DNA from: an uncultured Opitutales bacterium
GTDB taxonomy: Bacteria > Verrucomicrobiota > Verrucomicrobiia > Opitutales > JBHJGM01
DNA: 27,497 bases
NCBI GenBank assembly: GCA_964405825.1
Contig: CAYOPI010000016.1
Span: 1 to 27,497, forward strand
Direction: 5' to 3'
The notes beneath the pieces were generated by a model. That model saw nothing but the letters and a program-made list of their open reading frames with translations, searched no databases and had not been told where the DNA came from. This document shows, piece by piece, positions 2,341 to 4,533 of the stretch. The first letter of the stretch is position 1; every line of letters begins with the position of its first letter. The position numbers and the translations under genes were made by a program.

Positions 2341-3642
2341 ATGGACAGTACGCTTGCGATTCACGGCGGTGAGCCCGCCATCCCTTCCACCGTCGAATTC
2401 AAAAAGTGGCCGCCACCGCTGGATGCCGAGGGCGAGCAGCTGATCCTCGAAGCGGTGCGTCAGGACAATCACTCCGGAGGCGGCCCGCACGTGCGCCTGC
2501 TGGAGTCCGAGTTCGGCCAGTGGAACGGCAACCGCCACGTGGTCGCCACCTGTTACGGCGGCGCGGCACTGCACATGTGTGTCGCAGGCTGCGACGTGGG
2601 CGCGGGCGACGAAGTCATCACCACGGCGCTGAGCTGGACGACGTCGGCTACTTGCATACTTCACCACATGGCCGTGCCGGTCTTCGTCGACGTCGACTGG
2701 GAGTTCATGCACCTGGATCCGGCGAAGATCGAGGCGGCCATTACCGAACGGACCAAGGCCATCCTGGTCCTGCACTACTGGGGCGTGGCCTGCGACATGG
2801 CCGCCATCATGGCGATCGCGCGCAAGCACAACCTGAAGGTGATCGAAGATGCCTGCCAGGCGCACGGCGCGTGTTTCCAGGGGCGCAAGGTCGGCACCAT
2901 CGGCGACTGCGGGGCGTTCTCGTTCAACCAGAACAAGAACCTCAACGGCGGCGAGGGCGGTGTCTTTGTGACCGATGACGACGACATCCTGGCCAAGGCC
3001 AAGGCGGTGATGAGCTTCAGCGACATGCGCCCCGCCGACGCCGGCCGCGACTACCACCAGTACGGACTCGGCTACAAGTACGGCCACGGAAACCTGCCGG
3101 CGGCCTTTGCCCTGGCCGGTCTGCGCAAGCTGGACACCTTCAACGCCTGGGCCGTCGAGAACTGGCTCCAACTGCACGCGCTGCTCGAGGACACCCCGCA
3201 CCTGGTGCGCAGCCACTGCTCGGACGAGCGGACGACCAACGGCTACGCCTACGTGCTGCGCATCGATCCGGCCTGTGCCCGGGAGCGCGGCGTCGCCCTC
3301 TCCACGCTGACCGATGCGCTGATGGCCGCCCTCAAGGCCGAAGGTGCCGCCTTTGCGCGAGCCAACTGGCTGCTGCCCGGCCATGGCGTTTTCCAGGCCA
3401 AGAACGCCTTTGGCAAAGGCGCCCCGTGGACGCATTTTGCGCGCGCGGACATCGACTACAGTCTCGGCCAGTGGCCGGTGGCGCAGGACTGCATCGACAC
3501 CTGCCTTTGGGGCGTCAACCTGCATCGACCGCCAAACCGAGCCGACCAGATTGAGGCGCTCGCCATCGCCATCCGGAAGGTCTTCACGCAGCTGGACAAC
3601 GTCCCGATAGAGACCGGCGTCGAAACAGCGATGAATGCTTGA
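2341..3642 (+). CDS. DegT/DnrJ/EryC1/StrS-family PLP-dependent aminotransferase (sugar aminotransferase-like)
   Basis: Motif ...GAFSFNQNKNLNGGEGGVFVTDD matches the SFHxxKxLxxGEGG PLP-lysine region of this family. Also AIHGG...P and VIEDACQAHGA motifs. The ORF track begins at 2152, but ATG 2341 (MDSTLAIHGGEP) is the likely start. Confidence 0.8.
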   Translation: MDSTLAIHGGEPAIPSTVEFKKWPPPLDAEGEQLILEAVRQDNHSGGGPHVRLLESEFGQWNGNRHVVATCYGGAALHMCVAGCDVGAGDEVITTALSWTTSATCILHHMAVPVFVDVDWEFMHLDPAKIEAAITERTKAILVLHYWGVACDMAAIMAIARKHNLKVIEDACQAHGACFQGRKVGTIGDCGAFSFNQNKNLNGGEGGVFVTDDDDILAKAKAVMSFSDMRPADAGRDYHQYGLGYKYGHGNLPAAFALAGLRKLDTFNAWAVENWLQLHALLEDTPHLVRSHCSDERTTNGYAYVLRIDPACARERGVALSTLTDALMAALKAEGAAFARANWLLPGHGVFQAKNAFGKGAPWTHFARADIDYSLGQWPVAQDCIDTCLWGVNLHRPPNRADQIEALAIAIRKVFTQLDNVPIETGVETAMNA

Positions 3643-3742
3643 ACGCGCCCTTGGCCTGGTGCTGCAGCGGGACAACAAGACCATCCGCCTGCACCACTGG
3701 CACCTGGTTCATCTCAACCACAAGGAGCGGACGCGCGCTTCT
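3635..3742 (+). pseudogene. 36-codon remnant homologous to the C-terminus of the protein encoded at 7657..8433
   Basis: Translation MLERALGLVLQRDNKTIRLHHWHLVHLNHKERTRAS versus ...RHPDHKTIRLHDWHLVRLNREQRPRSLAFLD at the end of 7657..8433. The DNA is about 80% identical over ~70 nt. It overlaps the DegT stop codon. Confidence 0.55.
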
Positions 3743-4327
3743 TGAGGATTTCAAATCAGGTTGACCCTGCGCGGAGCAGGTGCGAACCTCTACACTTCAG
3801 TCATGATCTTTCAGCGACCCACAAGCCACTTAAACAACCGGGAGGATATGCGCCAGCAACCGCCCCTCGGTTGCACGTGCCGTTTCGGGACCGCTTGGAA
3901 GCATCCCAGACGAGGCCTTTAGCCGCTTTCCGGCTACTGCCTCCGCTTCCCCCGCCCGAACGCCACCCAGCGCTCGGGCTTTTTCTTTTCAGAGCATTGA
4001 CGAACCAGGCAAGGGTCCGTCTGCGCTTCGTACGTTTTCTGTGTTTCTAAGTAATCTTCGTGGTTTTTCACTTTTTTTCCGATTTCTTGTTGACAGACGT
4101 TACGATCGCCTCTTTGCTCTGCCCACAACCTTTTTCAGCGATGCAATCTTCGATAAGATCATTCCAGCCAGGCACTCTCTGCAGCGAGAGCGTCCTGCCG
4201 GCGGCCCGTCCCTCCATTGAGGATTTGGGTCCCCGTCCGGCGGCCTGGGCAATCTGGTTTCTCGAAGCGCGCGCCTGCACCGGCAGGTCATTCGCGAGTT
4301 AGCCTTTTCTTCGATCAAACCCTTTCC

Positions 4328-4366
4328 GCCCAAGCCGCCTCTGTCAGAGCGCTTGGGCTTTTTTGT
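4328..4366 (+). terminator. Rho-independent terminator-like hairpin followed by T6
   Basis: GCCCAAGC ...(CTCTG/CAGAG inner pairing)... GCTTGGGC followed by TTTTTTG. It sits in a non-coding region upstream of the tRNA array. Confidence 0.5.
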
Positions 4367-4533
4367 ATGCAGAGCAACGACAGTTCAACGGCGCCCCTGC
4401 CGCCACCTCGCAGGGTCAAACGTCACGTAAAGGGCGTCCAAACCGCGGCTGCTTCAGCTGCGAGAGGGGCGAAACGCATTCGTCGTATATTTTGATAATT
4501 TTTAGAAACACTTCAGTTCACTGAAGTTCCTGT

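Follow-up and report, generated by a model that had tools for sequence, protein, structure and literature searches.

A P258 gene remnant and a conserved leader upstream of a tRNA array and slipin gene in an uncultured Opitutales bacterium

A conserved leader between the DegT gene and the tRNA array

The analysis of a chromosomal stretch of 27,497 nucleotides (nt) from an uncultured Opitutales bacterium (assembly GCA_964405825.1, contig CAYOPI010000016.1; the whole stretch is hereafter called the window) reveals two distinct elements between a DegT-family aminotransferase gene and an array of tRNA genes. The first is a decayed 3′ fragment of the gene for a 258-residue protein (P258), whose intact copy lies further downstream, and the second is a leader carrying two small open reading frames (ORFs), each followed by an intrinsic terminator, and a putative structured RNA motif (Table 1). 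The fragment is almost certainly a real pseudogene piece, and the leader is very probably a conserved functional element of the tRNA array and the slipin (Band-7/SPFH) gene that follow it. The array packs 11 genes, all of + orientation, into 1.08 kb, and the intact P258 gene is followed on the same strand by genes for a DUF4034 protein and for a glycyl-radical enzyme with its activase. An initial annotation had described the interval as a gene remnant plus a lower-GC, non-coding spacer that marks a recombination junction. The lower GC content is confirmed, at 0.57 for 3643-4534 vs 0.65 for the window, with a minimum of 0.485 at 4000-4199.

Table 1. Features of the window, in window coordinates
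Feature	Position	Strand	Remarks
Nramp transporter gene	upstream of the spacer	+	
DegT-family aminotransferase gene	ends 3642	+	
Decayed 3′ fragment of a second P258 copy	3646..3760	+	left copy of the direct repeat
TTGACC box	3761..3766	+	−35-like; left edge of the module
Small ORF 1 (ORF1)	3803..3922	+	39 codons (39-47 in relatives)
Intrinsic terminator T1	3954..3984	+	GCCCGA...TCGGGC; hairpin 3954-3979, T5 3980-3984
Conserved block after T1	3990..4040	+	CAGAGCATTGAC plus variable hairpin
AT-rich tract and TTGACA box	4045..4095	+	promoter-like, resembling an UP element and −35 box
Small ORF 2 (ORF2)	4141..4302	+	53 codons (50-63 in relatives)
Intrinsic terminator T2	4328..4364	+	stem 4328-4335/4351-4358, T6 4359-4364
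Candidate structured RNA motif, about 100 nt	4384..4481	+	most conserved element of the leader
−10-like boxes TATATT and GATAAT, palindrome CTTCAG-TTCA-CTGAAG	4486..4526	+	read from the sequence; not conserved
11 tRNA or tRNA-like genes	4535..5612	+	ARAGORN and Rfam
Long slipin (Band-7/SPFH) gene, 505 aa	6042..7559	+	Pfam PF01145, E 5e-32
Intact P258 gene, 258 aa	7657..8433	+	no Pfam family

The whole case is comparative and draws on seven genomes, all Opitutae: the window, L001, L175, L177 (Cerasicoccus fimbriatus), L178, L180 (Puniceicoccus vermicola) and L181, with L177 and L180 being cultured species. The related loci were obtained through the closest slipin orthologues, the closest named relatives of the window slipin belonging to the Opitutae/Puniceicoccales (Verrucomicrobiota) at 60-66% identity, and L001 (Opitutales) was obtained through its P258 homologue. 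A gene-free stretch of 2.2-3.4 kb precedes the slipin gene in each of these orthologue loci. By nhmmer, window positions 3951-4505 match L177 (E 1e-18) and shorter parts match L175 and L178; a profile of the most conserved part also detects L180 and L181, and L001 has the element too. The order is the same in the seven Opitutae, namely a TTGAC box, ORF1, T1, an AT-rich tract, a TTGACA-type box, ORF2, T2, the motif and the tRNAs, with homologous arrays of 3-13 genes coming after the motif and slipin orthologues at 60-66% identity coming after the same leader and array. Leader, array and slipin gene form one travelling unit in these genomes: the genes beside the module differ in every one of the seven, and five of the seven modules have no P258 copy nearby, P258 being found only in the window and L001.

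Within the leader, two units of about 190 and 230 nt share a common geometry. The first box, TTGAC(C/G/A), lies 220-250 nt upstream of the T1 end in the window, L001, L175, L177 and L180 and was not found in L178 or L181; in the five loci that have it, the ORF1 start codon follows after 42-51 nt. The ORF1 stop lies 28-34 nt before the T1 hairpin in 7/7 loci, and T1 itself, which the initial annotation had missed, is present in all seven with compensatory changes in its stem and energies of −11.5 to −19 kcal/mol. In the second unit, A+T makes up 69-96% of the 45 nt upstream of the TTGAC(A/T/C) box in each of the seven loci but 35-50% of the loci as a whole; together the tract and the box resemble an UP element followed by a −35 element. 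The AT-rich patch reported earlier at about 4040-4140 is present and is the promoter-like tract of unit 2. The ORF2 start codon stands 51-54 nt after the second box and its stop 25-32 nt before the T2 hairpin, each in 6/7 loci, and T2, which is the terminator hairpin with T6 recognized previously, recurs in 6/7 loci (absent in L178) with compensatory changes; its energy in the window is about −17.7 kcal/mol. Over both units, the stop codon lies 25-34 nt before the terminator hairpin in 13/14 cases, and no consensus RNA structure was found in the two unit bodies beyond the terminators. The block between T1 and the second tract consists, in most other loci, of CAYTGRC, a hairpin of changing sequence and GGCGGAGCYTT, the last of which is not evident in the window.

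The two small ORFs are translated with reasonable probability, judging from their comparative behavior. The open-frame probabilities obtained from shuffles and summed over loci have log10 values of −5.4 and −4.7, with the fixed stop position left uncounted; the third codon positions differ more than the first and second, and the ORF frame outscores the other two frames in the alignment. The ORF1 peptide is weakly conserved around an xNPxG..C core, with ENPMGTCCA common to L178 and L180 and 4/4 of the underlying differences synonymous (codons read by eye), and the ORF2 N-terminus weakly conserves MxxxIxx(F/I)(Q/H)P. The earlier statement that the spacer holds no credible ORF therefore needs correcting, since the two frames keep their start, length and stop-terminator spacing in seven and six loci, respectively, although in the window by itself they would be easily discounted.

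The motif downstream of T2, also missed in the initial annotation, is likely a structured RNA; nhmmer recovers it in all seven loci (E 1e-19 to 1e-29). Its four helices were derived by hand and then tested on the seven sequences. S1 (GGCG 4390-4393 with CGCC 4401-4404) and S2 (CCCUGC 4395-4400 with GCAGGG 4410-4415) interlock to form a compact pseudoknot of the H type whose first loop is 1 nt, whose second is lacking and whose third is an A/C-rich 4-6 nt; P3 (CGUCC 4435-4439 with GGGCG 4467-4471) is invariant, and the P4 hairpin (4444-4451/4455-4462) varies in sequence and length between genomes while its closing pairs are kept. Specifically, 94% of the motif cells are paired, vs 37-48% when the partners are slid by 1-3 columns, seven pairs carry changes on both sides, and the covariation score was reached by 0/500 shuffles. 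The covariation is located in S1, S2 and P4, with at least five distinct compensated variants of S2; in two sequences the S2 register is, by our own reading, shifted by one column, which the tool counted as mismatches. With a covariance model, the seven loci reach 83-100 bits and about 170 other loci give nothing comparable; L089 reaches 29 bits, having itself been selected by a metagenome pattern. This pattern, GGCGTCCAAAC N8-38 AGGGGCGAAA, gave six matches without the upstream half of the motif, which is about the chance number by our own estimate, and they were rejected. A protein-coding origin of the motif was likewise rejected, as translated similarity appears in three frames and the P4 length changes are not multiples of 3.

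Two points temper the structural assignment. The single-sequence folding energy is no better than that of shuffles (z = −0.32), and the motif is supported by seven sequences only, so that the case for it is one of covariation in a small set. No known RNA family of Rfam 15, including GOLLD, ROOL, Y RNA, T-box, riboswitches and self-cleaving ribozymes, matched 3745-4534 at E<=10, and the leaders of L175, L177 and L180 gave no match at E<=1; the only weak YrlA-model matches in the window (E 0.13 and 9.2) fall on tRNA genes. We present the motif as a candidate new RNA family. Beyond it, the palindrome pointed out earlier at 4511-4526 does exist, but nothing equivalent precedes the first tRNA, over a span of 90 nt, in the six other loci, and a 6-bp stem of this kind is expected by chance about once per 900 nt (own estimate). 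Together with the −10-like boxes beside it, the segment may serve as a promoter for the array itself or as a processing site.

The P258 remnant and the history of the junction

The initial annotation had reported, directly after the DegT stop, a 36-codon ORF that copies the P258 gene end at about 80% nt identity, and alignment upholds this. Positions 3646-3736 and 8322-8412 are identical at 72/91 nt (79%) without gaps and in frame with the final ~30 codons of P258, vs 44/91 for the next best ungapped placement of the 91-mer in the window. Beyond 3736, a weaker similarity with an 8-nt deletion reaches ~3760 and 8436. The differences are evenly spread over the codon positions (6/6/7), the codon changes comprise 12 non-synonymous and 3 synonymous ones, and the remnant has lost residues that are invariant among 30 family members (R228, H229, H232, E248, F256 and D258), from which we read it as a neutrally decaying pseudogene piece. 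Moreover, a 'WHLV' signature is common to the remnant and the resident P258 and absent from the other 29 aligned members. This indicates that the remnant arose within the lineage and favors duplication inside the genome over a foreign origin of the fragment.

The view of the remnant as a rearrangement junction also holds, as the similarity begins 3 nt past the DegT stop codon and the DegT end is extended. The window DegT carries eight extra C-terminal residues (GVETAMNA, 3619-3642) that most of its ~80%-identical homologues are without, most close homologues terminating just after ...VPxxT. This extension is consistent with a junction at which the former end of the gene was cut off, and the original DegT stop may have been lost there.

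On the module side, the remnant forms the left member of a pair of degenerate direct repeats of ~115 bp (3646-~3760 and 8322-~8436), the remnant being the last ~30 codons plus ~20 nt of 3′ flank of a second P258 copy. The repeats bracket a 4.7-kb module made up of the leader, the tRNA array, the slipin gene and P258, and the remnant similarity stops at ~3760, exactly at the start of the conserved module. In the simplest history, the module would first have been duplicated in tandem, or a circular copy would have entered by a Campbell-type insertion through a crossover within the P258 3′ end; a deletion would then have removed the upstream copy down to the DegT end. Some observations weigh against such a history: it needs an extra deletion ending right at DegT, and no empty-site relative was found when synteny was followed via DegT. 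A DegT relative at 81% identity has wholly different neighbors, and synteny is poor in the clade generally. As for an integrase or recombinase acting on att-type repeats, repeats are present and no integrase was found in the 20 scanned window ORFs; the remnant lies upstream of the intact P258, opposite to the downstream place expected for elements that target a gene's 3′ end. We infer this history rather than establish it, as no integrase came to light and synteny around DegT gave no guidance.

A comparable arrangement is found in L013, where the P258 3′ end is present as a direct repeat of 197 bp (94%; 5066-5260 and 6177-6373) on either side of a 1.1-kb insertion that contains one or two ORFs, while the relative L014 has a single P258 3′ end without the insertion. 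This independent case represents a younger stage of such an event. A second P258 fragment of this kind was seen in 2/139 loci only.

tRNA arrays, slipin genes and P258 in related loci

Examination of the related loci reveals further features of the array itself. Three tRNA-like genes at 5386-5612 abut or overlap by 1-3 nt just before the slipin gene, and their bodies are orthologous in the seven loci, with matching trios at L001 8205-8425, L175 7279-7432, L180 6375-6601 and L181 6374-6597. The middle gene of the trio has a different anticodon per genome (CUG, AUU, GAA, UAU, ACG, CAU), which looks like anticodon switching on a fixed body, and the trio may represent the 'band-7-associated tRNA'. 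Two arrays contain a 97-98-nt 'tRNA-Pro' with ~25 extra nt (window 5107-5204 and L178 6960-7056). Between the last tRNA and the slipin start lies a gene-free 430 nt of 72-77% GC (window 5613-6041), whose equivalent in L175 (7440-7531) gives a weak match to YrlA, a Y RNA-like family (32 bits, E 0.004).

In Verrucomicrobiaceae arrays, an unannotated tRNA-like gene was observed (L013 ~1500-1600, L014 ~2740-2840, L021, L023, L049 and L059) with the form GCGGCAU...GUCUUCCAAAC...AUGCCGCACCA, an anticodon loop CUUCCAA (UCC), an encoded CCA and odd D and T arms; it is not called by ARAGORN. Planctomycete-type modules follow the order tRNAs, 258-aa gene, tRNA-His, HNH, tRNAs, slipin, with HNH endonuclease genes at L011 1788-2386, L015 6931-7525 and L065 1252-1848, an arrangement that echoes the HNH gene of cyanobacterial arrays. 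The 660-nt gaps of these three loci had been considered as counterparts of the window spacer and were rejected, as they encode the HNH endonuclease.

P258 has a wider distribution than the module. At least three tRNA genes lie within 6 kb of P258 in 27/80 GTDB loci, all 276 tRNAs within that distance in the 80 loci are on the P258 strand, and RtcB is encoded just downstream of P258 in about 20 of those loci. P258 relatives occur on 80 IMG/VR contigs as well, 29 of them with at least three tRNA genes within 6 kb, and a tblastn search against plasmids and phages gave no match. In L083, P258 sits inside an operon with the order RtcR, Ro60, P258, a 960-nt gap, RtcA and RtcB. Judged by these neighborhoods, P258 is an optional accessory of tRNA-array and RNA-repair modules. 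Its predicted structure is confident, and no known fold neighbor was found for it. Such findings flag P258, a widespread protein, as a partner of tRNA arrays and of RtcB/Ro60 repair operons.

Possible function of the leader and relation to known systems

What the comparison yields directly is conservation, geometry and base-pair covariation, and on these we build a proposal in which the small ORFs would be translated leader peptides whose ribosome occupancy determines the share of transcription that continues beyond T1 and T2 to reach the motif and the array. The tRNA array would thereby be switched on when translation falters, and the motif could act as a further sensor or as a processing platform on the precursor transcript. 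Ribosome-dependent attenuation is favored because of the Anabaena and Band-7 contexts described below together with the ORF-terminator geometry; the mechanism is nevertheless a tentative one that we would not call probable, as transcription, translation, read-through and the inducing signal are all inferred. The combined explanation, that is, the remnant with its duplication history, a conserved leader and translation-sensing attenuation, is in our judgment marginally probable. An extended form, in which two serial leader-peptide attenuators and a new pseudoknotted RNA class gate reserve tRNAs and the slipin module by sensing the ribosome or tRNA pool, is rather doubtful. More speculatively, the CCCU of the S2 5′ strand could pair with AGGGG of the invariant 3′ block, giving two conformations, and the motif could then be a riboswitch-like sensor or a processing ribozyme in which the CCCU strand has AGGGUCAAAC or AGGGGCGAAAC as alternative partners.

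A candidate for alternative pairing also exists within ORF1, where an element at codons 28-30 complements the T1 5′ arm (TTCGGG in the window, TCCGGG in L175 and L181, GTCTGG in L001). This partner of 6-7 nt is position-conserved in four loci and shows one compensatory change, the window arm being CCCGAA vs CCCGGA elsewhere and the ORF1 element changing along with it. Several observations weigh against attenuation. Tested locus by locus, antiterminator pairing did not reach significance, and no consistent partner was found for T2. A purely tandem attenuator would have no use for the separate promoter-like box that each cassette carries, both terminators have the look of strong, unconditional ones, and the AT-rich −10-like boxes past the motif could be the array's own promoter. 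A simple sigma-70 scan gave no full promoter match and no −10 hexamer is conserved, the small ORFs are without a Shine-Dalgarno sequence and have very low peptide conservation, the per-locus open-frame shuffle P is only 0.08-0.49, and expression of the leader is itself presumed from its sequence.

Part of this evidence would be accommodated if the small ORFs encoded stand-alone small proteins, with T1 and T2 constitutive, the array promoter downstream of the motif and no attenuator at all. Each unit having its own promoter-like box and strong terminator speaks for such an arrangement, as do the synonymous changes under the shared L178/L180 peptide, the absence of a significant antiterminator and the −10-like boxes between motif and tRNA (window 4486-4499, TTATAAT in L178, TTGACC-N17 in L175). 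It is doubtful, however, as the peptides are mostly unalignable while start, length and stop spacing are fixed, a pattern typical of regulatory ORFs, for which being translated counts and the peptide itself does not, and no hydrophobic or membrane-spanning stretch is evident by eye. Alternatively, the two units could each specify a small non-coding RNA, of about 190 and 240 nt, with the open frames being incidental. The missing Shine-Dalgarno sequences, the low peptide conservation and the individually weak open-frame statistics speak for this, as does a genomic context full of RNA genes, and Y RNAs occur in bacterial RtcB/Ro60 operons. We consider this unlikely: the bodies have no consensus structure beyond the terminators and no Rfam match, alignment scores are highest in the ORF frame, and even in relatives of higher A+T content the frames remain open and stop at a fixed distance from the terminator.

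The remaining alternatives concern the nature of the motif and of the spacer as a whole. The ACGT-N-ACGT symmetric core and the long invariant stretches of the motif could belong to a DNA-level site (for a regulator, a recombinase or a single-stranded DNA hairpin), or the entire 0.7 kb could be one RNA of the GOLLD or ROOL kind, which are often found beside tRNA genes. Both are very unlikely, given three helices with compensatory changes and a motif that is always on the tRNA strand in the former case, and internal canonical terminators, poorly conserved bodies and no GOLLD or ROOL match at E<=10 in the latter. A long RNA closed by TTGACCC/GGGTCAA complementarity, which is present in the window and L001, was rejected, since L175, L177 and L181 have GGTGAA on the 3′ side, and the 5′ TTGACC box is better read as a −35-like element. 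The initial annotation had suggested that an ancestral SPFH/partner-like locus was truncated when the array and spacer were inserted, or that the array is the cargo end of a decayed mobile element; on this view the spacer would be non-functional. A real remnant does abut the DegT stop, the GC content is below that of the flanks and the module neighborhood is different in every genome, but this view has become highly improbable. Insertion into an SPFH/partner locus is not supported because leader, array and slipin gene stay together in all seven genomes, P258 being absent from five of these modules, and decayed filler does not account for covarying helices or for ORFs and terminators that hold their positions while the flanking genes differ. 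That the seven loci are recent copies of one element is opposed by slipins only 60-66% identical. Neither is a mobile element supported: Pfam scans of 20 of the main ORFs of the window found no integrase or transposase, inverted terminal repeats were not found, phage and plasmid blastn returned generic tRNA matches only, two viral-contig pattern scans gave zero matches, and the sole sizeable flanking repeat in the window is the P258 gene-end duplication.

Returning to translation-sensing attenuation, the nearest parallels to the module are the long tRNA arrays of Anabaena and a predicted Band-7/tRNA-like/RtcB repair system. In Anabaena, long tRNA arrays are described as silent until translation is impaired and as co-regulated with rtcB, an HNH endonuclease gene and a hypothetical-protein-plus-slipin operon, and the trn operon of Anabaena PCC 7120 is controlled by the TrcR repressor bound to promoter direct repeats (PMC8421152, PMC10272220). 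The window shares with the trn operon a dense same-strand tRNA array, whose distribution may be patchy, and some relatives show a linkage to RtcB or HNH endonuclease genes; RtcB lies directly 3′ of P258 in L001, and an HNH_5 gene lies 3′ of the slipin gene in L174 and L177. Unlike the trn operon, the window array is short, its 11 genes and the 3-13 of its relatives comparing with up to 43 in the L-array class (Santamaria-Gomez et al. 2021), and the RNA-repair and HNH genes linked to L-arrays are absent from the window, where a tblastn search of the 27.5 kb for RtcB gave no match. The consulted parts of the Anabaena accounts mention neither small-ORF/terminator cassettes nor a pseudoknot motif. 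The Band-7/tRNA-like/RtcB repair system was predicted earlier (bioRxiv 10.1101/312249, citing Burroughs and Aravind 2016). The window Band-7 gene (PF01145) is, as in that system, directly preceded by tRNA-like genes, with RtcB as a neighbor in L001 and about 20 P258 loci, although not in the window; the leader and the 258-aa protein are not mentioned in the portion of that description consulted.

Ribosome-mediated attenuators include trp-type leader peptides and the antibiotic-responsive leaders found by Term-seq. The leader resembles them in that an intrinsic terminator just upstream of genes is separated by a short, fixed gap from a small ORF, and in having a candidate ORF-internal complement of the terminator's 5′ arm, and it differs from them in its long ORFs (39-63 codons), its two cassettes, each with its own promoter-like box, and an alternative pairing that is statistically unsupported. 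As for the rsr (Ro60)-Y RNA-rtcBA operons under RtcR, the window contains no Ro60, RtcR or RtcA and the motif is not a YrlA-type Y RNA, while the likeness lies in non-coding RNAs adjoining repair genes and in the presence of a P258 family member inside one such operon (L083). The leader of the tRNA-array/slipin module appears to be undescribed, adds a candidate new RNA family and provides a concrete element that is testable in two cultured species. To our knowledge, silencing and stress induction of horizontally acquired tRNA arrays are known for a single cyanobacterium, by means of a protein repressor, and the leader suggests a different, RNA- and ribosome-based control of such arrays in Verrucomicrobiota.

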